Source of the DNA: a virus
Taxonomy: Duplodnaviria; Caudoviricetes
Strand: one strand, 5' to 3'
Length of the DNA stretch: 41,076 nucleotides
Virus record (IMG/VR): IMGVR_UViG_3300049329_000004
Coordinates: 1 to 41,076 of that record
The position numbers and the translations under genes were made by a program. The notes under the pieces are model-generated. The model was not told where the DNA came from and searched no databases. It was given only the letters and a program-made list of their open reading frames with translations. Below are positions 3-41,076 of this stretch, piece after piece (position 1 is the first letter of the stretch; the number at the start of each line of letters is the position of its first letter).

Positions 3-176
3 AAACTTTCCGAAGCCGAGTTATCTTTGCGGGCATGCGGCAGTATTGCTGCCCTTCAAGAAGCGTGGCTAAGGCTTAATCAAGAGCAGCGCCGCGCATT
101 GGCGGATGTAAAAGAAGAATGCAAACAAGACATATTAGACGCCGATGCAGCTACAGAAAAACGCGTCGTGGCATGA
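3..176 (+). CDS. Probable C-terminal part of the ERF single-strand annealing protein (continuation of the ORF at 40666)
   Basis: Frame 3 is open from the edge (KLSEAELSLRACGSIAALQEAWLRLNQEQRRALADVKEECKQ...) to TGA 174-176, overlapping the exonuclease start. Confidence 0.65.
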   Translation, partial: KLSEAELSLRACGSIAALQEAWLRLNQEQRRALADVKEECKQDILDADAATEKRVVA

Positions 177-729
177 GGCGAGGCAAGGGCGCTTAACCGC
201 TTCTAACTTTGCTGCCGCTGCCGGAATATGCCCTTATAAATCCAGGCAAAAGCTATGGCGAGAATTAAACGGCTTAGACGAACCATTTACCGGCAACGCT
301 GCAACCGACTGGGGAGAATGTCATGAGAAAGACGCAATAAATGAGTATGAGTGTGTTACAGGCAATATTGTTTTACCTGTTGGCTTTATTAGCCATTCTA
401 GCTTTGGCTGGCTTGGTTGTAGCCCTGACGGTTTGGTTTCTATTGATGGCGCGGTCGAGGCGAAATGCCCGATGGGAGAACGCCCTAATTCTGAAGTACC
501 CAATCATTATCAAGCACAAATCCAAGGTCAGCTCGAATGCACCAACCGAGACTGGTGCGATTTCGTCTCCTGGACAGAAGCAGAAACCGTCATCATCAGA
601 GTCAAAAGAGACCAAGCATATTTTGGATGGCTTCTAAATTTGCTACAAGAGTTTTGGTTTGATTACGTTTTAAAAGATATCCCACCACCACGACTAGGAA
701 GGAAACCTAAGTATGTACCAGCAAAATAA
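145..729 (+). CDS. YqaJ/lambda-exonuclease family recombination exonuclease
   Basis: W..AR...LTAS, G...E..A, GCSPDGL, EAKCP and Y.AQIQGQL motifs. Confidence 0.93.
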   Translation: MQLQKNASWHEARQGRLTASNFAAAAGICPYKSRQKLWRELNGLDEPFTGNAATDWGECHEKDAINEYECVTGNIVLPVGFISHSSFGWLGCSPDGLVSIDGAVEAKCPMGERPNSEVPNHYQAQIQGQLECTNRDWCDFVSWTEAETVIIRVKRDQAYFGWLLNLLQEFWFDYVLKDIPPPRLGRKPKYVPAK

Positions 730-1610: not shown

Positions 1611-1773
1611 GAATGGCTGAGGCTGAAAGATTAATTGTTATTCTTTGAATTTATAGATTTTTGAATCAAGCCTAACGTCTCAATAATTTTGCCTGTAGTT
1701 TCTCCTGCCCGATATAAGCTCAGAGAAACAAGATTGAAAATTATTAGGCTCATGTACCGATGCCGGGGGAGGG

Positions 1774-3532: not shown

Positions 3533-3665
3533 GAAAATTTCTATTGCTGTTTTAGTTGCAGTGATCGTAATTTTTTTAGGCTGGTTAGCCTTTAAATGGT
3601 CTGATTGTGCAGATTTAGGCGGGCATTTCCTGCGAAGTGTTTTCTTCTTTGAATGTATTAGATGA
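3525..3665 (+). CDS. Small membrane protein (46 aa, not in ORF track)
   Basis: GTG start; TM segment followed by C...GG...C. Confidence 0.55.
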   Translation: MNKKISIAVLVAVIVIFLGWLAFKWSDCADLGGHFLRSVFFFECIR

Positions 3666-3886
3666 ACCAACGATTAACTATTAAACCAGGAAGCAAATGC
3701 GAATTTCCAGGCTAGAAAAAACGCTGAAATCCTAGCTGCTGACAGACAAGGGCCGGATCTGAGGACGGGCCATATGATGTTGAGGTAGGTCGATATTGCA
3801 AAGAACACGGCGAGGATACATCTAATTCAAATAGCCCAGAATATGTGGTGACATGCCCTAATTGTCGGTGCAGGTTTGGGATTTAG
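3662..3886 (+). pseudogene. Possible decayed zinc-binding protein gene
   Basis: ATGA-coupled start MNQRLTIKPGSKCEFPG, three in-frame stops in 3713-3742, then the same frame resumes ...RYCKEH...TCPNCRCRFGI. Confidence 0.35.
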
Positions 3887-3929
3887 TGATCTAAGTTATA
3901 AGGAAACTGCCCTTAGCAAATAGCGTGCT

Positions 3930-3957
3930 ATTGACCATAACGGGTCTTATGTTAAAT
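3930..3957 (+). other. dif-like XerC/XerD recombination site (ATTGACCATAA-CGGGTC-TTATGTTAAAT)
   Basis: Right arm identical to the E. coli dif XerD arm TTATGTTAAAT; left arm ends in CATAA like the XerC arm; 11-6-11 layout; intergenic. Confidence 0.88.
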
Positions 3958-4119
3958 ATAATCGACGTTTCTATAATCTTGTAGTAACAAGATCATTTGG
4001 AATTGAATACAATTTATACTGATTTGTAGGGTACAAATAAACTTTTTTATGGTGGGCGCTGGCGAACTATTATTGGGAACCCGGTATATAGATAATAGTT
4101 GCGGGGGTAAAGGCTAGAT

Positions 4120-4147
4120 AAAAGCCTAGTTGATCACTAGGTTTTTT
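4120..4147 (+). terminator. Intrinsic terminator ending the early-left transcript
   Basis: AAAAGCCTAGT-TGATC-ACTAGGTTTTTT hairpin with T tract. Confidence 0.7.
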
Positions 4148-4239
4148 AACCGGCGTCGTGTCTAGTCTCCTTAGAACGCGCGCGACTTGGCAGCACTATA
4201 TATATACGGAAATAAGCGTTAGCCTGCCACCTTATTATT

Positions 4240-4527
4240 ATGACCATCGACACTATCAGCCACGTTGTCCTAAAACAACTTGCCAAAGCTAATGCCGTCC
4301 ATTTTGCTGTCCTGGTCGGCCAGCCTGGCGGCTTTGCCTTGCGCGTGCGCTATAACCTGGAAGAAAAGGCTGTCGTTACGGCACGCGGTAAGCTGCGGGT
4401 CTTCAGTTCCTTAGATACCGCTTTTGGCTATCTGCACAAATTCAAGATTAGCCGCTTTGAGGTCAACAGCGCGAGCTATGAAGGCAAGCTCACAGAAGTA
4501 AAAGAACCTAAATGGATGAGCGAATAA
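4240..4527 (+). CDS. Small protein resembling plasmid ParC-type partition-associated proteins
   Basis: TI.H..L..L..A.AV....VGQPGG....V.Y...E......RG..R.F...T...YL...I.RF.V pattern recalled from plasmid proteins; not verified by search. Confidence 0.6.
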   Translation: MTIDTISHVVLKQLAKANAVHFAVLVGQPGGFALRVRYNLEEKAVVTARGKLRVFSSLDTAFGYLHKFKISRFEVNSASYEGKLTEVKEPKWMSE

Positions 4528-4529
4528 AT

Positions 4530-4700
4530 ATGGAAATTAAAAAGCTTATTGGATGCGCCATTGCCATGCTGCCGATAGTAATATGGCTTGGTTTTTTTGG
4601 TATTGTTTATGGTTGGACAAATGTTGCGATTGTTGTGTTAACTGCCTTAATTGGTTTAGCTATGGTGCTGATAGGCGTTCATATTGCGGTCAGCGAATAA
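4530..4700 (+). CDS. Small two-TM membrane protein
   Basis: Highly hydrophobic ORF directly after 4240-4527. Confidence 0.55.
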   Translation: MEIKKLIGCAIAMLPIVIWLGFFGIVYGWTNVAIVVLTALIGLAMVLIGVHIAVSE

Positions 4701-4705
4701 GGACG

Positions 4706-5059
4706 CTAGCTTATTACCTTTTTTATTTTTTGCTTTAGTTTCTTCACCTGCTTTTCCGGCTTATCCTCCACATCAATAAACTCGTTTCTGGCCTTCGAGG
4801 ATCTTATCAGTTCATCCAGCTTTAGATGAAATGCTCGGGAGTCTCGATTTTGCGTATTCTGAATAATAAACACCATCAGGAAAGTAATGATGGTCGTCGG
4901 CGTGTTGATATACAGCTGCCAAGTATCGCTGTAGTCGAATAAAGATCCTGTACAAGCCCAAACCACTATTATTAATAGTGCAATGCTGGTAGCCCACGGT
5001 GAACCGGCAGACGCGGATACTTTGCAGGCGAACTTAGTAAACCAATCGTTAAGCGCCAC
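4706..5059 (-). CDS. Low-affinity iron permease family protein (Fet4-like)
   Basis: SDTWQLYINT.TTIITFLMVFIIQNTQNRD..A.HLKLDELI signature. Confidence 0.9.
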   Translation of the reverse strand: MALNDWFTKFACKVSASAGSPWATSIALLIIVVWACTGSLFDYSDTWQLYINTPTTIITFLMVFIIQNTQNRDSRAFHLKLDELIRSSKARNEFIDVEDKPEKQVKKLKQKIKKVIS

Positions 5060-5291
5060 TTATCGGAGGCTCAATAATTTCTTTTGATTTAATGGCTTCT
5101 TCTAGCCTAGTTCTAGCTTGGTTATCCAGGTCTTCAATTTCTATCCATTCATCATCGGTAAAGTCCGGGCGGCCCGCATCTTTTGCCCGTTGAATAACTG
5201 AGCCCACTTGATCCATTCTTAAGGATAGCTCGGCAATGGCGGTAGTTAGATCCAGTAATATTTGAACCCCTTGTAATACGCTGGTACTCAT
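5049..5291 (-). CDS. Hypothetical protein of the lysis cassette
   Basis: Coupled to the lipoprotein gene. Confidence 0.7.
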   Translation of the reverse strand: MSTSVLQGVQILLDLTTAIAELSLRMDQVGSVIQRAKDAGRPDFTDDEWIEIEDLDNQARTRLEEAIKSKEIIEPPISGA

Positions 5292-13412: not shown

Positions 13413-13736
13413 TTAGTTCTCCTTGATTAGAACTTGGTCGATATTTTCAGCATCGGTTTCGTTCGTTGCATGTATGCAGTACCAAACCACATCTTCTATT
13501 GCTGTGATCTTGTGCGTAACCCCGGCCTTAATTTCAATGCAAGCAGGAGCGGAATAAACCGTTTTTTCGTCATTTGCCTCAACCATAGCTATGCCGCTGG
13601 CTAAAACACTTAAATGGCTATATTTATGTTTGTGCGATAAAGCGCAATGGTTACTTGGCAACATCATTTGTTTCGCATACAAGCCATCGGAAAAATAATG
13701 TTGAGTACCTAAAAATTTATCTAGTAAGTTACCCAT
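13413..13736 (-). CDS. Cupin-fold protein
   Basis: HKHKYSH and later H metal-binding cupin motifs; WYCIH. Confidence 0.8.
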   Translation of the reverse strand: MGNLLDKFLGTQHYFSDGLYAKQMMLPSNHCALSHKHKYSHLSVLASGIAMVEANDEKTVYSAPACIEIKAGVTHKITAIEDVVWYCIHATNETDAENIDQVLIKEN

Positions 13737-14286
13737 CGCATCTCAAACAAATAATTAGGGTTATACGATCCGTATCGCCGCTGTTCTTTACTTCGTGCTC
13801 TAGCGTGTTATTGAAGTACCAAACCTCACCAGACGACATAACCACTTGTTCATCTTCAACCCGATTGAAGCACTGCGGATTGCTCAAAATCGGTACATAA
13901 AGTTTTACGTTGTAATACTCTGGATGCCAGCCTTTATCGGCATGTGGTAGCACATGGCCATTCGGTGGAATCTTAGTAATTAATATAGCGCCAAGCCTTA
14001 CCGCTTCGCAGCGGGCCATTAAGCCAAAGATAATGGGTCTTAATTGCGGCAGCTGGTAATAAGGCGGATGCCACACGGAATCATGCTGCGCCGTGAATTC
14101 TTCGTAACCTTTATCTAGATTCTTCAGATCGTTATAACGAATCCATATATCGGAGGTAGCTTTATGCGCTGAACCTTCAAATTCTTTTCTATCATTGTTT
14201 TGGTCCCATAATTCCGGCTGTCTTTGTAGTGCCAAGCCTAGTGGAATAACATCTATTCCTTCCGCTATCTTTAAAAAATGCTTCAA
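13729..14286 (-). CDS. Aspartyl/asparaginyl beta-hydroxylase family 2OG-Fe(II) dioxygenase
   Basis: PHAD (HxD), GEVWYFNN..EHEV.N (distal His), DRITL (2OG-binding Arg). Confidence 0.88.
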   Translation of the reverse strand: MKHFLKIAEGIDVIPLGLALQRQPELWDQNNDRKEFEGSAHKATSDIWIRYNDLKNLDKGYEEFTAQHDSVWHPPYYQLPQLRPIIFGLMARCEAVRLGAILITKIPPNGHVLPHADKGWHPEYYNVKLYVPILSNPQCFNRVEDEQVVMSSGEVWYFNNTLEHEVKNSGDTDRITLIICLRCDG

Positions 14287-14996: not shown

Positions 14997-16405
14997 TGAT
15001 TAATATCTGCGCCGATAAGCGCAATCTTCACGGGGTCCGTACCGGATATCTCAAATATACGGTTTGTTTTCTTACGCGACATCCCAAGGCGGCGCCACTT
15101 AACACGCGCACCGTATTCACCGATCCGCCCCATTGAGCGCCAGCGCTCATTGCTCCAGGTATGGCCACCATCATCGGAATAGCGCAATATCATCTGAGGA
15201 TCTGAGCCTTGGCCGCTGGCAAGCCCCACACCTGTTTCACAATCCACTTGCAAGGAACTAAAAATAACTCTTTCTTGGCTTTGTCCTGTAGGTAGCGCTG
15301 GCCAGGAGCGCAGCCACTTTTTTGTGTCTCCGGCATCGGTGTAGGTGTCTAGATTTAGCCGGTATATCTTGCCGTTGCTGTGGTCGCCAACAAGGTATTC
15401 GTTATTAAAGAAGCAAAAGCAATTTGCTCGGTGCCGCTCAAACTGGCTGGTAACGGAATTAAAATAAGCTCGCTCATGCCATAAGCGAGTAGATGCGTCA
15501 TAAACCCAGCTCGTATCCCAATCAGGAGAAGTCAACCATAAATTTTCGTGGCCTTCTTGCTGATAAGAGAAAACAATCGTTCTGTTTAAATCAACGCTAG
15601 ATAAATATTTTTCTAAGGCATGAGTAGAAATGCGGCCAGGGTTATAGCCTCTGGCATACCAGACAATGCAGCAGCCTTTTTCATCCTGCCCCACCCATGC
15701 TAATGAGCCATCAAACTTTGCTACGGCATAGGGAGAAACAATACCTTGCTCAATAAATCGCCCGCTGGTTGCCTCAAACGGAAAATCTGCGGCGCCCGTG
15801 TTGACATAAATTTCAGTAGACTGCGTGCCAAATGCCCACACTTCACGATGGTCTGCTATGACAGCTAATACATCATCTGGCTTACCTTCCGCCGTGATGT
15901 AATCCAGCGGGTCCACCACAGTGCCATCATATTGGCCGGTAATGCCCCATTGACCGGTTCCAATGATGTTGAAAGCAAAGTAAGTGTCGATGAATGCAAC
16001 CGTGTTAGCGTTCACGCTACCCACTTGGGTTAAAGTCGCGGTAGCAATGGTGTAGATATAAAAATAGCTGCCGTCAGCAATAGCAACCTGTAAGCCGTTG
16101 TCATCCATAGAAACAATGCCGTTCGAGGTCAACAAGGTGCCTCGGGCAGTGGCTACATAACCCGTACTAATTTCATAAAGCGTATTGCCGATTACGGCAT
16201 ACATAAAGGGCGTTAATTCACACATGCCCCTAACTTCCGCTATTGCTGGCTGGACCAATTCATCCAAGCCTGGGGTTCCAAAGAAGCCTGCTACTTCTTT
16301 GCCGTCCTTAGTGTCTACAATTTCAGGGTATAAATTAATACAGCGCTGGGCATTTAAATTTAAGCTGCGGGCTTCATAGGTTCCACCCAGGAATGGTGTT
16401 TTCAT
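14993..16405 (-). CDS. Tail hub / packaged DNA stabilisation protein (P22 gp10-like)
   Basis: Q.CINLYPE start, AEG.PD, SDDGG.TWS..RW...G..GEY..R..W.RLG end; 470 aa. Confidence 0.9.
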   Translation of the reverse strand: MKTPFLGGTYEARSLNLNAQRCINLYPEIVDTKDGKEVAGFFGTPGLDELVQPAIAEVRGMCELTPFMYAVIGNTLYEISTGYVATARGTLLTSNGIVSMDDNGLQVAIADGSYFYIYTIATATLTQVGSVNANTVAFIDTYFAFNIIGTGQWGITGQYDGTVVDPLDYITAEGKPDDVLAVIADHREVWAFGTQSTEIYVNTGAADFPFEATSGRFIEQGIVSPYAVAKFDGSLAWVGQDEKGCCIVWYARGYNPGRISTHALEKYLSSVDLNRTIVFSYQQEGHENLWLTSPDWDTSWVYDASTRLWHERAYFNSVTSQFERHRANCFCFFNNEYLVGDHSNGKIYRLNLDTYTDAGDTKKWLRSWPALPTGQSQERVIFSSLQVDCETGVGLASGQGSDPQMILRYSDDGGHTWSNERWRSMGRIGEYGARVKWRRLGMSRKKTNRIFEISGTDPVKIALIGADINQ

Positions 16406-17349
16406 TCCAGGTAAGGCTGAAAATAAAGCGAACTGGTGTCAGGGTCGGCATTCCTGGCAATCGCCGTTGATTCTTTGTAGATATCTTCTAAATCAGGCGT
16501 CCAGGGCACTTTAAACTTAGGTGCCATAATCTTAGCCAACCCCCACGACAAGGCTAAAAACCAGACCTGCGGATAGGCAATATCGTCACTAGCCGAATCG
16601 TAATCTTCGGACGGCGCTACAAAGGTAAACGACAATACTTGCGTGACATCATTAGGATCGCTATTGGTAAATAACAATCCATTTGGAATATTTTGCTGAT
16701 AATAAATACTGCCCGGGTCGCCTTCAGCGCCCTTATCCGGAATCTTGTCGTAATCCTCAGTGTTGCGCAGGATGCGTAAACCCCAATCAGAGCTATCACT
16801 ATTACGTAAACTGATGCTGCGAATATGCAAAGGCCGCATCAATTTAGTTGTGTAAGCAAATACGCGATTACCGCTGCTAGCTGAACTTGGCAATGCATCG
16901 GCTATCGTGACGGTAGCACCACTAGGCGCGCCGTTTACGGTGCTCCAGTGCAAGGAACCGTCATCTAGTTCTATCCCGATATAATCCGCTGCTGTGATTC
17001 CAGAAATACTGGTGACCGACAAAGCAGTTTGTCCGGCAGCTTCGGCGCCGGATAAAGTAGTCGTAACGTATTCCAGCGTGGCATGATCCCCAGTTGGACC
17101 TAACGCATATTCATGCTGGTCTTTCTGTAGAAACAAGAATCCACGTTTCAAACTCCAGGTTTTCAAGCCAGGTGAATAGTCATTTGCCCCCTGCCATTGC
17201 TTTGCTAAGAAATTAAGACTCCGTAAACACGTGGCTTGATCTTCAGCAGATAACGTTTCGCCTGGATCGTAGACGGCAATATTCTCCAAAGCATCAATAA
17301 TCACGTCCCCAGCAGTAACGAGGTAATCGTAAGAGCCAGAAGTCGCCAT
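16402..17349 (-). CDS. Head-tail adaptor (gp4-like) with an inserted beta-rich domain
   Basis: T..D.I..AL..I...GE.L.AED....L..LN start, P..W..AL..GLA end; central TTTLSGAEAAGQT... insert. Confidence 0.75.
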   Translation of the reverse strand: MATSGSYDYLVTAGDVIIDALENIAVYDPGETLSAEDQATCLRSLNFLAKQWQGANDYSPGLKTWSLKRGFLFLQKDQHEYALGPTGDHATLEYVTTTLSGAEAAGQTALSVTSISGITAADYIGIELDDGSLHWSTVNGAPSGATVTIADALPSSASSGNRVFAYTTKLMRPLHIRSISLRNSDSSDWGLRILRNTEDYDKIPDKGAEGDPGSIYYQQNIPNGLLFTNSDPNDVTQVLSFTFVAPSEDYDSASDDIAYPQVWFLALSWGLAKIMAPKFKVPWTPDLEDIYKESTAIARNADPDTSSLYFQPYLE

Positions 17350-18365
17350 TAGGCTGCTTTCTCAAGTAGCGGTGTCATCGCATTCCAAAATTGATCAGCA
17401 GAAATATCCGCCTGACAAGCTGCCGTGCCTGATTCTTCATCTCTTACACAATGCTCAAAGCCAAAATGCATCAGGTGGCAGGGATAACAGGGTGTGTTTT
17501 TAGGTGTTAGCACCGTGCAATTTACCCAATCCCTGGTTAAGTTTTCATGGGAGGAATGGGACAAAGTAATGATCTTGGGCACGGATAAAAATGCCGCCGC
17601 ATTCAATACGCCTGTTTCAGGGCCTACCACCATATCGGCGTGATTTATAAAGGTCAGCGTTTCTCGAATGCTCCAGACGCCAGAGCGCTTGATTACTCGC
17701 GGCTCGTTCTCCCAGCCGCATTCCAGCATCTGACACATGGGGTCACCCACTGTCACAATTCTGCAATCTGGATAGCTTATAAGCAGCCTTGCGATAATCG
17801 TGTCTAGATATGGCCAGGTTTTATGCACTGATGAACCGGAAAGCGACCACACAATGCAAGAACCGCCGCCCATCTTGTTGCGCTCGCGCCGCGCCCAAGC
17901 CGTTTCATCCGCTGCGGGATAAAACTTCTGTGAGGGCTTGTAAGGTAAGTCCGCTAATTCGTGGGTGAACTCTAGATAATTAGTGTTCATGTACTTCGCT
18001 TTAACCGTCTTATTCCAGCCATGATTTGATCGTCCTGGCAGCGCTAGCCAAGTGGCTTCGACCGATTCGCAAAGGTTGATAAACTTGTCGTATTTCTTAG
18101 CGGTGTAGTCAAAGAACTCTAGCAGTTGAGTTCCTGGAACTTGATCTTTGTCTTGCACGATAAATCGATCAATGTGCGGGTCATGCTTGAGAATCTCGAA
18201 ACCAGCTGGCACGGTATAAAACGTAAGGTGATAGCCTTGCGCCTTCAGCAAGGGCAATAAACTGGATGCTTGGATAACATCACCAAAGCCGCCATAACGC
18301 ACCACACCAGCGGTTTTTTTAGGCTTAGGGTTTGTATAGGAATAGCGATGTATAAACTTGCCCAT
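17349..18365 (-). CDS. Glycosyltransferase family 9 (heptosyltransferase-like)
   Basis: R.GGFGDVI...LL, HKTWP, VGPETGVLNAAA and C-terminal CYPC...C...C motifs. Confidence 0.88.
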   Translation of the reverse strand: MGKFIHRYSYTNPKPKKTAGVVRYGGFGDVIQASSLLPLLKAQGYHLTFYTVPAGFEILKHDPHIDRFIVQDKDQVPGTQLLEFFDYTAKKYDKFINLCESVEATWLALPGRSNHGWNKTVKAKYMNTNYLEFTHELADLPYKPSQKFYPAADETAWARRERNKMGGGSCIVWSLSGSSVHKTWPYLDTIIARLLISYPDCRIVTVGDPMCQMLECGWENEPRVIKRSGVWSIRETLTFINHADMVVGPETGVLNAAAFLSVPKIITLSHSSHENLTRDWVNCTVLTPKNTPCYPCHLMHFGFEHCVRDEESGTAACQADISADQFWNAMTPLLEKAA

Positions 18366-18889
18366 CAGATTCGCTTAAACACGAAAAACAAGCTGTACTC
18401 GTAATCCTGGTTACGCTTCTGAAAATCCACTAAATCCCACGAGCCGATTTCTTTCATGGCATCTACAACGCGGTCATAATTAACATTCCATTTGTGGTCA
18501 GGGTTTGCACCTTCTTCGCCCACTTTTGGATATTCATCTTCATCCGGCACATAGAGGATTAAGTAGCCGCCTGGCTTCACACATCGAAACCATTCTTTCA
18601 GCGCCGCTTGGTAATCTTCTATGTGCTCCAGCAAATGACTGGAAAACACAAAATCCATCGACTGCGAGGCAATTAAATCTAATTTCTCGCAGCTCTCTAC
18701 AATTAAATTAGCTTTGTTCTGCCAGCCAAACTGTTGATCGTGGTGCCCATTATCGACACCAATAAAATGCGGAAACGCTTTGAACGGCCCGCAGCCAAGG
18801 TCCAAACCTCGGCCACGGGTATATTCAACCAACTCCCAGCGAATCTTTGCAGACTCGTTACCCTGCGGGTCGTCAATGCGCCAAACCAT
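18365..18889 (-). CDS. Class I SAM-dependent methyltransferase
   Basis: LDLGCG motif I, D.VFSSHLLEH, R.VKPGGYL. Confidence 0.9.
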   Translation of the reverse strand: MVWRIDDPQGNESAKIRWELVEYTRGRGLDLGCGPFKAFPHFIGVDNGHHDQQFGWQNKANLIVESCEKLDLIASQSMDFVFSSHLLEHIEDYQAALKEWFRCVKPGGYLILYVPDEDEYPKVGEEGANPDHKWNVNYDRVVDAMKEIGSWDLVDFQKRNQDYEYSLFFVFKRI

Positions 18890-22059: not shown

Positions 22060-24068
22060 TGTCTTGCCGCAGTAATTTCATCGACCTGTCTTAATAACTG
22101 CAAAGCCTGATTTTCAGCTTCGTTAGCACTCTTGATATCTCGTAGCTCAAGTTCTGCCGCAATTCGTCGGTATTCGGCATCCAAATTCTTCTTGGCAAGC
22201 TCCAATTCTTTCTTGGCGAACTCCAGTTTTTGCAATTCATCCTCAACCGCATCGGCCTTGTCAGTGATATCGGCTTCCTGTTTTGCCAATATCTGAGCTT
22301 TTTGCTGAAGCTGTGCCTCTGCTTGCTTGATTTGCTCTGCATTAATCGCTTGTTCCTGGCTAAAGAAGCGTTTGCCGTCTCGATAACCTAAGGCGCCAAA
22401 GATTTCCTTGCTGATTTCCTCTAAAGTAATGTTAGGCGCGCCACTTGATGCAATATCTGCAAAGGTTTTAATGCCAAGGACGAATTTCTGCAACTTGGTA
22501 TTCGGGTCGGTCGCACCCATGCCCACATTTACTCGCAAACTCAGTTCTTGATTGAGTAAATCATCGGTAACTTGATTAATGCCGTAGCGCTGAAACACTT
22601 GTGCGCGCTCAGCAGCTAAGCTCAGCACCACTTCGTCGGTTTCGTAGGCTTGCTCTAGCTTAACCAGCTGGCGGAGTACTTTTTCCACCCAAGTTTCAGT
22701 AATGGTGCGCAGCAAATATTCCTGCATTTGCGTCGCACCCTGATTTAATAAACCAAGTCCGCCCACGGTTTCGCCAAGCTTTCGATTGGTCGAAACACTG
22801 CTGGTGGAAAAGTTGCCTACCAGTTCGTCATAATCGACATTTACCCGGTCTTGCTCCAAATAAGCGGAGCTGGTGACATCAGGGAAATTAATTTGGCCAA
22901 CATCTTCGTTAACGTTATCAACTTGGGTCACTGAGCCCGGCACATTTCTCAGCAAACTTTGTATATCTACTTGCCTGCCACGTTTGACCAAATAGCGCTT
23001 ATTCAGCACCAATTTGACGTTATCTAGCCGCTGATTAACGATCTCATTGGCTTCAAGCTGTAAGCCTTCTCCCAGCTTCACCACGCCGGATGGCATGGTT
23101 TTATGGGTTTCGATAATGGCGCAGCCGATAGCGAAGGGTCGCTGGCCATGCAAATAGACTTCTTCTATACGCTTAGGTGTAGAAAGTAAATGTAGTGTGC
23201 CTAGGGTGTAAAACACCCAGTCTTGATCATCTTGCCGGATGATATTTAAGTGCACCCAAACCGTTTCAAAGTCATTAACCGGCTGGTTTAATTCTTTGGC
23301 ATCTTCGCGATTGCCGTCCCGTACCATACGGGTAGGGTCATATTCCTTGGCTGCCGCTGTTAACTCTTCCTCTTCTAAGCGCTTCCATTTTGGCTGACCG
23401 GTTTTGTCATCGGTCGCATCCATCATGGCTTTAATATCGCCGATATACATCGGCATCTTCCATATAAAATATGGACTGGTATTGACCGGGTCAATCCAAG
23501 AAGCGGCAGGGCTAAAACGAGTGTTTTCTATAGGGATAAGTTCAATGCACGGCTTATCGTCTATAACTTTGAGCTGCTCAAATTCTTCCTCGGTTTCAAA
23601 ACCAAATTCATCGGTAATGACTCGGCGATACTTTTCTTTCTTAGCTTTATATTTCCAGTATTGGTAGGAGCAAACCACGCCTTGAACTTGAGCGTCTTGC
23701 ACGCCACCTACCAAGATCTGAAACCAAGGTATGGTTTTTTGTAAACGATAATTAATTAATTCCTTAACAACGGAAGCGGAGGCCTGTTGTATCGGGTTGT
23801 TGTCATCTTCGGCATCAATCGACACCACATCTTGGTTCGAAAAAAAAGCCGCAGCAGCGGCGGCTTCGTTCTTCCTGACTACAGATCGGCTTTTAGGTCG
23901 AAAGATTTTGGAGCGATGGCGATAACCCTCGGAGTTATACTTAGAATTGGCCGGATGTTCGTTATTGAACATCTTTATGGCATCTTCCCATTCCCGGCGA
24001 TAATTAGCGTCTACATAAGACGTGCTGCTGTCATAAGCATCGCTAGCCAGCTTGAGCCAATCGGTCAT
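22056..24068 (-). CDS. Portal protein (P22-like, C-terminal coiled-coil barrel)
   Basis: 670 aa; Q.E.N...NQRLDN, ET..G...L, C-terminal coiled coil; between terminase and scaffold. Confidence 0.88.
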   Translation of the reverse strand: MTDWLKLASDAYDSSTSYVDANYRREWEDAIKMFNNEHPANSKYNSEGYRHRSKIFRPKSRSVVRKNEAAAAAAFFSNQDVVSIDAEDDNNPIQQASASVVKELINYRLQKTIPWFQILVGGVQDAQVQGVVCSYQYWKYKAKKEKYRRVITDEFGFETEEEFEQLKVIDDKPCIELIPIENTRFSPAASWIDPVNTSPYFIWKMPMYIGDIKAMMDATDDKTGQPKWKRLEEEELTAAAKEYDPTRMVRDGNREDAKELNQPVNDFETVWVHLNIIRQDDQDWVFYTLGTLHLLSTPKRIEEVYLHGQRPFAIGCAIIETHKTMPSGVVKLGEGLQLEANEIVNQRLDNVKLVLNKRYLVKRGRQVDIQSLLRNVPGSVTQVDNVNEDVGQINFPDVTSSAYLEQDRVNVDYDELVGNFSTSSVSTNRKLGETVGGLGLLNQGATQMQEYLLRTITETWVEKVLRQLVKLEQAYETDEVVLSLAAERAQVFQRYGINQVTDDLLNQELSLRVNVGMGATDPNTKLQKFVLGIKTFADIASSGAPNITLEEISKEIFGALGYRDGKRFFSQEQAINAEQIKQAEAQLQQKAQILAKQEADITDKADAVEDELQKLEFAKKELELAKKNLDAEYRRIAAELELRDIKSANEAENQALQLLRQVDEITAARQ

Positions 24069-31372: not shown

Positions 31373-31594
31373 TTAACTATCCAAAACTATTTTAGTTTTT
31401 GCTCTATAAGTCCGCATATATTCACGCTGATACTCTCGCTTGTTAAATCTGTTAGAGTTTTCTTGTCTAACTAACTCATTGTTAGACTGCTCTTGTCTAA
31501 CGGTTAACTCTTCTCTCGCATCAGCTAACAAGCGTTTAAGCAACTGAATGCATGAGCCTGTATGCTTAGCCTCGCCACAAATACCGCAATTCAT
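31373..31594 (-). CDS. Hypothetical protein (CxxC, basic tail)
   Basis: REYQREYMR.YR C-terminus. Confidence 0.65.
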   Translation of the reverse strand: MNCGICGEAKHTGSCIQLLKRLLADAREELTVRQEQSNNELVRQENSNRFNKREYQREYMRTYRAKTKIVLDS

Positions 31595-32106
31595 TAAACT
31601 ACCTTTCTTGCCGGCGGCAACGTTTCACCCGGATTAAGATTGGCCACCTCAATAGCCCTTTGCCAGCCATCAGTTTCCGGGCGGAAATATTTGCCTAGGT
31701 CTTTCTTCATTCTTTCTTCGCGGCTTTTAGCACATTCAATTTGCGCCGCCTTGATTTTATCAATCGCTTCTCTCGCTCTAATCTCGACAACGTGATTTCT
31801 TATTCCCACCATCACATAAGAGGGTATGCAGCCGGGTGAAACTTCTAGCTCTATAGATAATGGAGTTAAATATTCAAAGTGCTCGGCCTTGAGCGTAATC
31901 ATGGGCCAAGGGGAGGGCAAATAGGTCTTATATCTCCATTCCCCGGTAAATCCGAATCCACCTTCCATAGATTTGAATGTCGCGCCGTCTTCAGGCCAGG
32001 CAGTAACTTCTATTTCACACCCGACCACACAATCAAGTAATTTATGCGGCGGGTTTGGCTTTAGCTTTCCAAGAAAGATATCACCTATGGAAATCTTTTT
32101 GTTCAT
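31594..32106 (-). CDS. Hypothetical protein
   Basis: Start moved to ATG 32106 (ATGA coupling with upstream small membrane gene). Confidence 0.6.
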   Translation of the reverse strand: MNKKISIGDIFLGKLKPNPPHKLLDCVVGCEIEVTAWPEDGATFKSMEGGFGFTGEWRYKTYLPSPWPMITLKAEHFEYLTPLSIELEVSPGCIPSYVMVGIRNHVVEIRAREAIDKIKAAQIECAKSREERMKKDLGKYFRPETDGWQRAIEVANLNPGETLPPARKVV

Positions 32107-32240
32107 ATGCCAGTAAGAAGCTGCGCCAGTGCCCAGCACGCCAAGCCAGCCGCGATTAAATTAATCCTTCCGGCAGATAAGCCGATTGCCGCAACGGTAA
32201 ACAGTACTAAAGCAAATACCAGCAGAATCATTGTGATCAT
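32103..32240 (-). CDS. Small two-TM protein (45 aa, not in ORF track)
   Basis: MITMILLVFALVLFTVAAIGLSAGRINLIAAGLACWALAQLLTGI; ATGA-coupled at both ends. Confidence 0.7.
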   Translation of the reverse strand: MITMILLVFALVLFTVAAIGLSAGRINLIAAGLACWALAQLLTGI

Positions 32241-32515: not shown

Positions 32516-32926
32516 TTATGTGATTAAAGAAGCAAAGGCCTGCTCAGCTTTATCTAAGCGGTAAAAGTAATTGGTTCGTGAGTTCACTATACCCGTTGTC
32601 CGGCCCTGTTTTATCAGTTTATCTAAGGTGCCTTCTCGCAAATAATGCATATAAATGGCCTGTTGGTGCTCTCGCGGCAGTGTCATAATCAAGTCATTAG
32701 TGTGCGCCGCCTCTAGTGCATCCACATTAACCCGCCCGCGATAGTCTGGATCGTACACAGAGCCCAGGGGAGGGGTGTACAAGCGATTTATAACGCTGCT
32801 GGTATATCCGGTCTTCTCTCGACTGCTAGCAGCCCAGTACGCCCAATTTTGCAGCATTGCACGGGCTTTTTGAATCTCATAGGATTCTTTCGGTTGAGCT
32901 GACATATCTTTCCTTTTAGGTTTCAA
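32516..32926 (-). CDS. Q: Late antiterminator Q family
   Basis: L.NWA.W start, sigma4-like C-terminal HTH, position before pR'/tR'. Confidence 0.75.
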   Translation of the reverse strand: MKPKRKDMSAQPKESYEIQKARAMLQNWAYWAASSREKTGYTSSVINRLYTPPLGSVYDPDYRGRVNVDALEAAHTNDLIMTLPREHQQAIYMHYLREGTLDKLIKQGRTTGIVNSRTNYFYRLDKAEQAFASLIT

Positions 32927-35376: not shown

Positions 35377-35569
35377 GATTGGCCACCTTCCTCTTCTGAT
35401 CCCATTCCTTTCTTACTACCGCTCGAAGCTTGTCGGTATGGTCTTTCCCTCTCGCGTCCTCGACGTGCTGCAAATACAGCTGCCTTTCGGCGAGTGATGG
35501 TAATTTGCACACGTAGCGGGCTTCGCAAATTAGCCGCCATTCTTCGCTCCATGTAAAACCGCGTTCAAT
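35360..35569 (-). CDS. Conserved-looking phage protein lacking a standard start codon
   Basis: Open frame TWSEEWRLICEARYVCKLP...RQLYL..VE..RG.....LR..V..EW; only ATT (35569) or CTG (35584) upstream. Confidence 0.5.
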   Translation of the reverse strand: MERGFTWSEEWRLICEARYVCKLPSLAERQLYLQHVEDARGKDHTDKLRAVVRKEWDQKRKVANHEARN

Positions 35570-36539
35570 GGTGTTGTTCCACAGGGTGTTTTAGCCTGTC
35601 AAAAATCCGTGCTCTCAATTGCGAGCAGCTTTCCTCGGTAAGTCGGGATAACCCAAGTTCTTTAGCTTTTTTCTCAATGCCATCGTCTGAATGCCACCAC
35701 ATCGTTTCACGCGTAGGTGATTGATAAATTTCAGGTTTTTTTCCACCATTTCCACCATTGCCGTTATTTCCAAGTTTTGCCCAATTCTCACGGACAGCGC
35801 ACATGAAAAATTCATCCCAATCGATTTTTTGATAGCCGTTAGCTTTGACCTTCGAGAGGAAAGCTTCCAGGTGTTCCTCAAGGCGGATATGCCCCTTTTC
35901 CTCTGCCCAACGCCTGACACGATCCGAGATTCCGAAGTCTTCTGGCAGCGGGGTTTTTAGGGGTTTTGGTTTTCCAACCCTTCGAGTGCGAATGCCGACG
36001 CCGTTAGGCGGAGGGGAATTGTTCGTCGGAGCCGTGGTAAACGTCGGAATTTCCATGTTAGTGGACACTAACGTGTCTACACTCCCGCTAGGGAGTGTAT
36101 GAATCAGTGAATCAGGAATCAGTAAATCAGGGGGATTTCCACCGTCTTCGTTTCGTGAGTTCACCGTTATTTCACAGTTAATCACAGGAGCTCTTACAGA
36201 ACAACTACTTACAGAATCATAAGCGGGAAGGGTAGAGGGTTTTTCAGTATGGTGCGGTGACTGATGTTTTTTGAAATTCTGCACTTGTATGACTGCTATT
36301 CCGTTACTCACGTACCTTTTAACGAACCCTAACCGTTCAAGCACGGTTAATTCACCGTTAATATCACAATCGTAATAAGGAAATATTTCTGCCTTGATTT
36401 TTCGAGGCTTATCTTCTAGTCGACCTTCTTTATCTGCAAGGCACCACAAACCAGCAAATAGCAATTGTGACAATGGTCCAGCATCAGCCAGCTCATAGTT
36501 CTTAAAGAATCCTGGCTTAATATTCCTAGCACGAGCCAT
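35565..36539 (-). CDS. Replication initiator protein (lambda O-like)
   Basis: MARARNIKPGFF.N..L...LLF.GLW.LAD.EGRL N-terminus, NF.KHQ, internal iterons. Confidence 0.88.
   Translation of the reverse strand: MARARNIKPGFFKNYELADAGPLSQLLFAGLWCLADKEGRLEDKPRKIKAEIFPYYDCDINGELTVLERLGFVKRYVSNGIAVIQVQNFKKHQSPHHTEKPSTLPAYDSVSSCSVRAPVINCEITVNSRNEDGGNPPDLLIPDSLIHTLPSGSVDTLVSTNMEIPTFTTAPTNNSPPPNGVGIRTRRVGKPKPLKTPLPEDFGISDRVRRWAEEKGHIRLEEHLEAFLSKVKANGYQKIDWDEFFMCAVRENWAKLGNNGNGGNGGKKPEIYQSPTRETMWWHSDDGIEKKAKELGLSRLTEESCSQLRARIFDRLKHPVEQHH
36101..36361. repeat. Putative replication origin: iterons in the initiator gene
   Basis: TTCACCGTTA 36160 and 36351, TTCACAGTTA 36171, GCACGGTTAA 36341; four AATCAG copies in 36101-36130. 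Confidence 0.65.
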
Positions 36540-36568: not shown

Positions 36569-36826
36569 CTACCAAACCTCTAGACCTTTTTTGGAAAACA
36601 CTTTAAGCGCTCTCCACTCATCTACCGTAAGGTGTACCACCTCGGTTTCTTTTTCGTAAACAACCAGCCCCAGCACCTCGAATAACGCATCTAACTCCTC
36701 GATTCTTAAAGAAGTTTGGCTGGATAGCATCTTGCTTACCGTGCTGGCTTCTTTGTTCAGAGCCCGGGCAATGGTTTCCTGCTTAACCTGCTTGGATCGC
36801 TCAATAATTAGCTGTTCTATACTCAT
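36569..36826 (-). CDS. cII: CII-like transcriptional activator
   Basis: Q..IA.AL....STVSK HTH and L..LGL; between cro and initiator; start ATG 36826 or TTG 36853. Confidence 0.7.
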   Translation of the reverse strand: MSIEQLIIERSKQVKQETIARALNKEASTVSKMLSSQTSLRIEELDALFEVLGLVVYEKETEVVHLTVDEWRALKVFSKKGLEVW

Positions 36827-36857
36827 AAATTCTCTCTGTTCAACAGTTTTCAATTGG

Positions 36858-37211: not shown

Positions 37212-37540
37212 AAGAGCACTTATTGCTTTTTGGGGCCATAGAAATCACTTTAAGTTAGTAACAAACAATATATCTTTGTTACTTTAAGCGTAATTAGCTT
37301 AAGCAGCTAACCAACTGTTTAACTTATTGATTTGTATGGCTTATTCGTATAATAGGTATTATGAATTTGCTTGCTTTAGCCATACAAACTATGTACATTT
37401 GGAAAACCACTTCCCTGCTCTTTTTGATGATCAGTACCCCGCTAAAGAAGAGGGCGCAGATCAGGATATCTAGTAGGGAAGGGGGGTTAAATTTGCGATA
37501 TTTAGTCCCTATTAGTCAATTTACCAATACGCGCATTGAT

Positions 37541-37789
37541 TTAGGCCGCTTCCCGTGGATACAGATCCGGTCGCATATCGTATCGGGTTAATTGACGGTT
37601 AGTGATGCGTTCAATGGGAATGACCACTTGAGCAGGGATTACCTTATCTCGATTAAGCCAATTCCAGACATGCTGACTAGTATATGGGTGTTTTGTTAGT
37701 TCAGACAGACGCCGAGCTAGTTCGGCCTGACTGCCCACTATGTGGATAACGTCAGGCAGAAATGAATTGATTTTAGGAACGTTGCGCAT
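37541..37789 (-). CDS. cro: Cro-like repressor (YdaS/Cro family)
   Basis: GSQAELARRL...Q.VW.W...IP......IE..T.......RPDLY; divergent from cI. Confidence 0.88.
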   Translation of the reverse strand: MRNVPKINSFLPDVIHIVGSQAELARRLSELTKHPYTSQHVWNWLNRDKVIPAQVVIPIERITNRQLTRYDMRPDLYPREAA

Positions 37790-37794
37790 TGCTC

Positions 37795-37833
37795 TTTATA
37801 CCAACAATAGTGTATTTATGTCAACACTAGTTA
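37795..37833 (-). promoter_or_regulatory. PR promoter and OR operators
   Basis: TTGACA-18 nt-TATAAA on the - strand; operators CAACAATAGTGT 37802-37813 and CAACACTAGTTA 37822-37833. Confidence 0.75.
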
Positions 37834-37846
37834 ACGGAATTGTCAC

Positions 37847-38260
37847 ATGGCCTTAGGCAAAAGATTGAAAGAAGCCAGAGAATATCGAGAAAAAACGCGC
37901 GGTTGGCTAGCAAAACAGGTCAAAACAGCACCTGGTAAAACGCTAAGTCAAACAGCAGTTAAAAATCTTGAGGATCGAGATAGCCCAACGTCTCGCTATT
38001 CTGCTCAGTTTGCCGAAGCTTTAAGAATAAACGTGGAATGGCTAACTACCGGAAGAGGTTCGATGATAGGTGGAGACAATAGCAATATTGACCCAAAAGT
38101 TTTGGAAGTGGCTAAGAATTTAACCTTGCTGCCAGAAGATCAGTTTGAAGGAATAATGGCTCTTGTTAAAAATGCATTGAAGGGCATCAAAAGAACGACC
38201 TTAGAATCCGCAAAACACCGCCGTTTGAACGATAACAACCATTTGAGATTAGCGCATTAA
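37847..38260 (+). CDS. cI: CI-like XRE-HTH repressor without S24 peptidase domain
   Basis: LGKRLKEARE...LA......SQ.AV..LE.......A.AL.INVEWL.TGRG; only 137 aa. Confidence 0.85.
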   Translation: MALGKRLKEAREYREKTRGWLAKQVKTAPGKTLSQTAVKNLEDRDSPTSRYSAQFAEALRINVEWLTTGRGSMIGGDNSNIDPKVLEVAKNLTLLPEDQFEGIMALVKNALKGIKRTTLESAKHRRLNDNNHLRLAH

Positions 38261-40665: not shown

Positions 40666-41076
40666 ATGCAGAGCACGGAATCGATCAAGGCGTTAGCGAG
40701 CGCGCTAACGAAGGCGCAGGCGCAGATAGAGAAAGCAGAGAAAGACAAAACGAACCCGCATTTTCGTTCGAAGTATGCGGATCTGGGGAACGTAGTCGAT
40801 GCGATCAAACCGGCGATAGAGCAATTTGGTTTGAGTTTCATCCAAGTTTGCCATGATTGCGAGAATGCGGCCAAAGTGGAAACCGTCATTCTTCATGAAA
40901 GCGGCGAATGGTTATCTTGCGGCGCTGTATCTGTACCAGTTAGTAAACAGGATGCGCAGGGTTATGGGTCCGCTCTCACTTACGCTCGCAGATATTCTTT
41001 ATCTGCTGCGTTTGGTGTTGCGCCAGAAGACGATGATGGAAATAAAGCGGCTAAGAATCCACCAAAGAAAGCAGAA
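40666..41076 (+). CDS. erf: ERF-family single-strand annealing protein (runs off the window end; not in ORF track)
   Basis: AL.KAQ......KD..NPHF.SKYADL..V..AI.P, HESGEW, QGYGSALTYARRYSL.A..G.A.EDDDG. Confidence 0.93.
   Translation, partial: MQSTESIKALASALTKAQAQIEKAEKDKTNPHFRSKYADLGNVVDAIKPAIEQFGLSFIQVCHDCENAAKVETVILHESGEWLSCGAVSVPVSKQDAQGYGSALTYARRYSLSAAFGVAPEDDDGNKAAKNPPKKAE

Follow-up and report, generated by a model that had tools for sequence, protein, structure and literature searches.

A XerC/XerD-type site in a repressor-bearing tailed phage and its possible recombination by host XerCD

A tailed phage that has a repressor switch and no detectable recombinase gene carries between its operons a 28-bp site which, judged from its letters, is likely to be of the XerC/XerD type and would be bound by host XerCD. 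The window analysed here, a stretch of 41,076 nucleotides, is the whole of the virus record, which is classed as linear. An earlier sequence-only reading had proposed that this phage exploits host XerCD, either to integrate at dif or to resolve dimers of a plasmid-like prophage. Exploitation is well supported as an inference, as the site is real, no recombinase accompanies it and strains have kept it; of the two uses, resolution of circles agrees with more of the findings than does integration at dif. That reading took no account of the ParC-like neighbour, the one-way KOPS or the similar sites on cultured tailed phages that do not integrate. The reading that we prefer, tentatively and at a little under an even chance, is that a plasmid-type site for self-recombination stands in place of the integrase and keeps an extrachromosomal phage circle monomeric.

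The site and the genome that carries it

The 28-mer ATTGACCATAA-CGGGTC-TTATGTTAAAT was confirmed on the window sequence at 3930-3957 of the + strand, where the sequence-only reading had placed it, and it stands far above shuffled sequence. Its right arm is identical to the XerD arm taken from MG1655, and its left arm is so close to the reversed XerD arm that the site is almost symmetric (Table 1). The pattern ATAA-N6-XerD arm is matched at the site with no mismatches, while shuffles yield a mean of 0.21 matches even with two mismatches allowed. With a dif weight matrix, trained on 57 sites that were themselves picked via the arm pattern, the site scores 25.9 bits; the best score in each of 20 shuffles averages 11.8 and reaches 20.0 at the top. 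The 28-mer has the architecture of a XerCD core site: an 11-bp XerC arm, a 6-8-bp spacer, an 11-bp XerD arm and an inner dyad. It is intergenic, lying 3′ of the + strand early-left genes and 5′ of two small + strand genes and of the end of the − strand late operon, and the gene map thus bears out the claim that early-left and late operons converge here. A turn in GC skew near the site was set aside as evidence, since it tracks gene direction. No exact copy of the 28-mer was found among viral contigs, and the 18 viral loci with ACCATAA-N6-XerD have no protein in common with the window.

Table 1. Coordinates of the site, its surroundings and other features in the window
Feature	Position	Strand	Basis or remark
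Left (XerC-side) arm, ATTGACCATAA	3930..3940	+	7/11 vs E. coli XerC arm, 9/11 vs reversed XerD arm
6-bp spacer CGGGTC	3941..3946	+	2/6 identity to TGTATA, both end bases differ
Right arm, TTATGTTAAAT	3947..3957	+	exact E. coli XerD arm
X2 replacement point, 229 other letters, 16 bp left of site	3909..3914	.	X2 contig alignment
ParC-like plasmid-family gene, 95 aa	4240..4527	+	PF28031-like by model; plasmid homologs
Small hydrophobic ORF, variable cargo	4512..4700	+	4518-4692 deleted in X2
Likely C-terminal part of ERF gene	3..176	+	aligned to C-termini of 7/120 ERF homologs
YqaJ exonuclease, after ERF C-terminal part	145-729		annotation
Phage replication initiator, downstream of cro-cII	35565..36539	−	annotation
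cII-like regulator	36569..36853	−	phrog_725
cro-like repressor, YdaS family	37541..37789	−	annotation
Two operator-like repeats between cro and cI	37802..37833	+	sequence
cI-like repressor, 137 aa, HTH only	37847..38260	+	annotation
ERF annealing protein, N-terminal part, off record end	40666..41076	+	ERF N-terminus match
KOPS (GGGNAGGG), intergenic	1766..1773	+	motif scan
KOPS, antisense to portal gene	23330..23337	+	motif scan
KOPS, antisense to ORF 31594-32139	31910..31917	+	motif scan
KOPS, antisense to Q-like gene	32767..32774	+	motif scan
KOPS, antisense to initiator gene	36225..36232	+	motif scan
KOPS, downstream of cro	37476..37483	+	motif scan

The completeness of the record is put at 66% by CheckV, which gives closed relatives of 42 and 45 kb only 69% and 54%. 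An ERF N-terminus at the right end and an ERF C-terminus at the left suggest that probably only a few codons are missing, and the genome is probably a circle of ~41.1 kb, short of those codons. The first 58 codons align with ERF C-termini at a best E of 1e-5 within a small set of 120 homologs (BLAST), and a profile of ERF C-termini has no match in the window, the record ends being joined by BLAST alone.

The window encodes a terminase, an SU10-type portal, a capsid, P22-like head-closure and ejection proteins, a tail fibre and an endolysin, together with a replication initiator, cII-, cro- and cI-like regulators, ERF and YqaJ. No viral relative of the ejection protein was found. Judged by genes alone, this is a temperate tailed phage (terminase, portal, capsid and tail genes, divergent cI/cro, and cII), and the cI/cro/cII switch that had been claimed is present in all three types of gene. 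In the cI-like repressor no peptidase domain was detected, and it has no homolog among 37 candidates. The claimed absence of a tyrosine or serine recombinase also stands: none was found among the 79 ORFs, and six-frame translation yielded no match to PF00589 or PF00239. In having no element-encoded recombinase the phage resembles IMEX, the gap at the record ends being probably small. There is no PF13614 (ParA) match in the genome and no ParB or plasmid-type Rep among the window ORFs, so neither the partition ATPase nor the plasmid-type replicon of a phage-plasmid of the P1/N15 kind was found in it.

Two further groups of genes deserve mention. Methyltransferase, glycosyltransferase-like, hydroxylase and cupin genes lie within the head-tail operon (16402-18889 and 13413-14286) and are kept in capsid relatives, and glycosylation of the virion is possible. 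At the end of the late operon there is a moron of the low-affinity iron permease family (4706-5059), ~55-62% identical to genes on plasmids of soil proteobacteria and uninformative on the host.

Parts of the region occur in 14 soil runs, seven of which (X1-X7, X1 possibly being the source) were compared, all as contigs. Besides X1, the site is covered in X2, X3 and X6, in all three of which the 28-mer is identical; X4, X5 and X7 do not cover it. That the 28-mer is kept in X2 despite indels on both of its flanks supports the plasmid-type self-recombination that we prefer.

A plasmid-type neighbour and spacer

The gene downstream of the site is ParC-like (PF28031) by model, with a TM of 0.80-0.85, and it matches NCBIfam NF041544 with an E of 5e-8, below the curated cut-off; the ParC-like protein is no partition ATPase. 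It has 195 cluster representatives and matches to 447 plasmid records. None of the capsid relatives examined encodes it, and a single-sequence search returned no viral relative, an alignment-based one giving two loci. Of 12 plasmid loci, six have a Xer site with a G-rich spacer of 7-8 nt ~100 bp upstream of the homolog and oriented alike, as does a locus at a provirus edge. The phage has the same orientation with a spacing of 282 bp. A plasmid dif module has its gene between two inverted Xer sites, and several plasmid loci do have an inverted site directly downstream of the homolog too; in the phage only the upstream site is present, no inverted partner occurring within 3640-5200 of the window. 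The six plasmid loci form one close Aeromonas/enterobacterial clade, and the upstream site is absent from six loci on Xanthomonas, Rhizobium and Serratia plasmids. Support from a single clade, the 282-bp spacing and the missing partner weigh against the reading that we prefer. The ParC-like gene lies between inverted Xer sites in small Aeromonas and Shigella plasmids and at the provirus edge (L403, L407, L408 and L416).

The spacer differs from TGTATA, as the sequence-only reading had noted, with neither end base shared; that reading had taken the difference to suit integration through partial homology, a resolution site like psi or an atypical host dif. CGGGTC has no homology to TGTATA at either end, and the spacer homology of IMEX is thus missing with respect to TGTATA, the common host type. 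The dif pattern was found in 130 of 251 gammaproteobacterial genomes, a sample that includes two unpublished ones (G136 and G214), and among the 145 matches listed the spacer starts with T in 127, with C in three and with CGG in none, as counted by eye. ATAA-CGGGNN-TTATGTNAAAT occurs in none of 401 gammaproteobacterial genomes, and CGGGTC as a chromosomal dif spacer was not found in the genomes searched; two text supplements of PMC3025954 have no match to it. CGGGTC is thus unlike the chromosomal dif spacer, as expected of a site for plasmid multimer resolution. The exact spacer does occur in 13 metagenome loci, including one Rep3 plasmid (L356) and one contig that appears plasmid-like (L355), the remainder adjoining resolvase, efflux, group II intron or IS genes; in three of the loci there is an inverted partner site ~0.9 kb off. 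It is also found in a phage (G091) that encodes its own integrase.

Several related arrangements were seen along the way. In three sediment contigs (L351, L352, L358) resolvase and two-component genes adjoin an inverted pair of Xer sites separated by ~0.9 kb. In a Rhodocyclaceae bin (G077), which also contains a TTTGTA-spacer site, a CGGGCA dif-like site has genes for a DUF927 helicase and a tyrosine integrase as neighbours (L205:12018, G077:C6). One bacterial contig has two TGTATA dif copies, inverted and 29 kb apart (L393-L394, G336:C1:158081-187432), and double dif matches also occur in G165 and G233.

How would such a site serve the phage? A plasmid-kind XerC/XerD site would have arrived together with the ParC-like gene and taken the place of the integrase. 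The ERF/YqaJ system of the phage would generate dimers of the phage circle, host XerCD would recombine the two site copies to bring dimers back to monomers, and the lysogen or carrier state would be kept as a non-integrated circle. Identical spacers would allow recombination of site with site, and would exclude a host dif of the TGTATA type, which differs in the first and last base. Resolution is preferred to integration at dif because of the missing spacer homology to host dif, the plasmid-borne spacer class and the neighbour from a plasmid Xer module. The preferred reading is weak in that it lacks an activator as well as partition genes and a replicon of its own: with no ParA, ParB or plasmid Rep, and with the sole initiator in the cro-cII operon that would be repressed in a lysogen, stable plasmid maintenance is left unexplained, which argues against it. 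Gokushovirus dif motifs have a variable spacer and integration still occurs, according to the accessible part of PMC7062461, and this also counts against it.

Integration, passenger and terminal-repeat alternatives

Is the site instead an attP? In the main alternative, which is somewhat unlikely, XerCD would integrate the phage at the host dif in the manner of IMEX, with KOPS turned against the coding strand and the prophage joining one replichore. A XerC-first exchange would produce a working dif at the right junction, made up of the phage left arm, the host spacer and the host XerD arm, and would leave the left junction unmatched; with one-way KOPS the prophage would be part of the XerC-side replichore, where the restored dif alone would be activated. 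The main evidence is the one-way arrangement of GGGNAGGG, which we take to be the FtsK-orienting KOPS motif. It occurs six times on the + strand (0.55-1.13 expected) and not at all on the − strand, ranking first of 42 patterns of the same composition, and the four copies lying antisense inside genes have P = 0.004 in 2000 synonymous-codon shuffles. All six point toward the XerC arm of the site, that is, toward the right junction of a prophage cut there, whereas in E. coli the motif converges on dif from both sides. Polarised relatives have their KOPS on the late-gene strand (G051 1/6, G077 0/6, G039 2/0, G035 4/0), opposite to this phage, and several relatives have no KOPS polarity. FtsK activates XerD via DNA beside the XerD site (PMC2673442, accessible part), so that KOPS aimed at the XerC arm are a misfit with FtsK-driven resolution of a free circle. 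The polarity fits a prophage with a restored dif, situated on the XerC side of it, or else a remnant of integration in the past, and in the latter case it could date from a life driven by an integrase, which takes force from the argument for attP.

Integration would also suit the position of the site at the end of the early-left operon: in the equivalent operon of a Polaromonas prophage (G051) an integrase gene lies downstream of ERF. An integrase is found on the capsid contig in two of five prophage-bearing genomes tested, and a repressor switch with no partition genes requires some other route of inheritance. Against attP stand the spacer, with no homology to TGTATA at either end and with C-first host dif sites as rare as three of the 145 listed, and the search for integrated copies. 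The sequence-only reading had led one to look for related prophages flanked by dif-like sites. Capsid relatives occur in 31 bacterial genomes (from 50 loci), in none of which the contig with the capsid gene also contains a dif match, and no close relative of the phage was found in them. A switch from phage to host sequence at the site was likewise absent among the joints and loose ends listed for the four covering runs (X1, X2, X3 and X6), where contigs can reveal presence, not absence.

A second alternative, which we consider distinctly improbable, makes the site a passenger: a plasmid dif module would have lost one half, the other half would have been captured with the ParC-like gene into a variable region and be dispensable for the life cycle, perhaps serving as a hot spot for the exchange of cargo. 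The layout of site and then gene is that of plasmid modules, and X2 has indels on either side of the site. The capsid relatives, which are ~50-70% identical and come from many taxa, also bear on this. A tyrosine integrase was found in none of 20 of their records, so that many manage without one, in keeping with a dispensable site, and the closest closed relative (G039, terminase 72% identical) lacks an integrase, and its best site is not significant, at 12.0 bits for a null mean of 12.3. Of the capsid-relative records compared (50 of 80 loci), five contain the dif-like pattern with two mismatches allowed. The match in G006 falls inside a head-closure gene, and a provirus-edge match in G040 lies within an ORF at null level. 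A site conserved throughout the family was rejected, as only one of 15 relatives scanned (G025) beat all shuffles; in this complete 37-kb relative, in which there is no integrase, the site ACTTCGCATAA-TCACCA-GTATGTGATGT (L350:4643-4670, G025:24643), with a good XerC arm and a degenerate XerD arm, lies between initiator and resolvase genes. Conservation therefore holds among strains, the 28-mer being unchanged in X2, X3 and X6, and fails among capsid relatives, where the one significant dif-like site lies elsewhere in the genome. Bas95 is distant, and the half of its genome that was examined has no dif-like site. However, a passenger would hardly be expected to keep a perfect XerD arm and an unchanged site in three other samples; the genome-wide KOPS bias in core genes suggests long contact with FtsK, and capture exactly at the integrase position would be a coincidence.

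The third alternative comes from other tailed phages, and for this phage it is very improbable: virion DNA would have short terminal repeats that contain the site, and once it is injected XerCD would join its two ends, a role that has been suggested in rV5-like phages. A search with the 28-mer matched cultured Seunavirus phages, and the site of these phages, which has E. coli arms and CGTGTA, matched 293 phage records, 268 of them over most of its length and largely rV5-like. In the rV5-like phages GAP31, 4MG, SPLA5a, Hena1 and 18-1-2 (L364-L368, L391), E. coli dif arms enclose CGTGTA or GGTGTA. In many rV5-like records the site is less than 1 kb away from an end of the record, and several others contain it twice; in Hena1 it lies at 289-316 of both 519-bp terminal repeats. 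These phages are presumably lytic, and first-base-altered dif copies in cultured rV5-like phages indicate that a dif-like site need not be an attP. In 7 of 10 annotated CGGGNN tailed-phage loci the site lies within ~2.6 kb of a terminase gene, and the best cultured terminase matches of our phage (22-32%) include VpV262 and SIO1, which we take to have defined genome ends. A contig of X3 has a depth of 41 over 3834-4415 and of 19 next to it, a peak that is uninformative since depths in X3 span 0 to 52. In this phage, however, the site lies 25 kb from the terminase, Hena1 has a single KOPS in the 109 kb examined, unlike this phage, and the ParC-like neighbour would be left unexplained. Finally, that the 28-mer is a chance resemblance to dif is scarcely credible, for although the motif is short and ~1700 viral stretches contain a similar pattern, the shuffle and weight-matrix scores, the intergenic place and the adjoining plasmid-module gene speak against it.

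In a sample of 121 of those viral stretches there are 78 different spacers, TGTATA accounting for 14, and with CGGG at one of the 121 a special viral class of this spacer is unsupported. Sites with CGGGNN near a terminase gene are L173, L175, L179, L180, L183, L189 and L334 (G094), the last between terS and terL. A Seuratvirus (SLUR75, L369:8000-8027), from a second cultured group, has AGTGCGGATAA-CGTCTA-TTATGTTAAAT ~1 kb from the record end. A closed jumbo phage of 358 kb (G092, L182:9994-10021) has the fully symmetric ATTTAACATAA-CGGGGA-TTATGTTAAAT, with two XerD-type arms, and no tyrosine integrase match. Low-GC viral contigs (L088-L092, L097, L099, L100, L102) have direct dif-like pairs 1.8-2.4 kb apart, each site being followed by an A-rich terminator-like stretch.

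Comparison with known systems and significance

At sites of the cer and psi kind, PepA acts together with ArgR or ArcA on ~180 bp of accessory sequence that adjoin the XerC arm. The left flank of the phage site is not conserved among strains, so that there is no evident accessory region, and the 229-nt change in X2, 16 bp left of the XerC arm, argues against accessory sequences there. What the phage site shares with plasmid sites such as ColE1 cer and pSC101 psi is XerC/XerD arms around a non-chromosomal spacer that starts with C or G (PMC5357621, accessible part). The ParC-like modules of small Aeromonas and Shigella plasmids (CP071153.1, NZ_CP068093.1) also have the site upstream of the gene in the same orientation, but with the spacer GGGGGCG and an inverted partner, whereas the phage site has the 6-nt CGGGTC, no partner and a place on a tailed phage.

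Among elements that integrate, CTX depends for compatibility on the bases adjoining the XerC site (PMC4246890, in part), and the VGJ attP departs from dif near the XerD side, while TLC and GGI retain the spacer (PMC5357621, in part). IMEX of the VGJϕ type resemble this phage in a single dif-like site on a double-stranded circle, with no integrase and no XerD-side homology, as far as the available text of both sources goes (PMC4246890, PMC5357621). They differ in that the attP of VGJ, a 7.5-kb filamentous phage, retains homology beside the XerC site; the phage spacer has no such homology and no integration was observed. TLCϕ, the gonococcal island, dif-type double jelly-roll prophages and enterogokushoviruses are likewise integrase-less users of host XerCD according to PMC5357621, PMC12715192 and PMC7062461, and the IMEX phages in the accessible list of PMC12715192 are non-tailed only. 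In TLC and GGI the spacer resembles that of the host and it is the XerD arm that is degenerate, the reverse of the phage site, and unlike the tailed phage here all these elements are non-tailed or islands. The dif copy of the Vequintavirinae (Hena1, GAP31, 4MG) does lie on tailed phages, with intact arms, a changed first spacer base and a place where gene blocks converge; it differs in a spacer that is otherwise host-like, and the phage here has a repressor switch. We take these Vequintavirinae to be lytic myoviruses of ~140-150 kb. P1 carries genes for a recombinase and for partition as well as a plasmid replicon, none of which was found in this phage. The likeness to P1 Cre-loxP is in the function proposed here, site-specific monomerisation of a temperate phage circle (PMC5357621, in part).

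A literature search with sparse coverage of subscription papers found no publication in which a tailed phage makes use of a dif-like site, in line with the earlier remark that no well-characterised lambdoid tailed phage was known to do so, nor was the terminal-repeat dif copy of the Vequintavirinae found in print. What is new here is the link to a plasmid module, the comparison of the spacer with host dif sites and the finding that KOPS polarity is reversed. Given ~1700 viral stretches with mostly non-chromosomal spacers, a dif-like site is not to be read as an attP without a test of spacer and junction. Cultured rV5-like phages make a role of XerCD in tailed-phage DNA testable in E. coli now. 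Temperate phages are usually recognised by their integrase genes, and a repressor combined with a Xer site and no recombinase would represent a lifestyle that such screens overlook.
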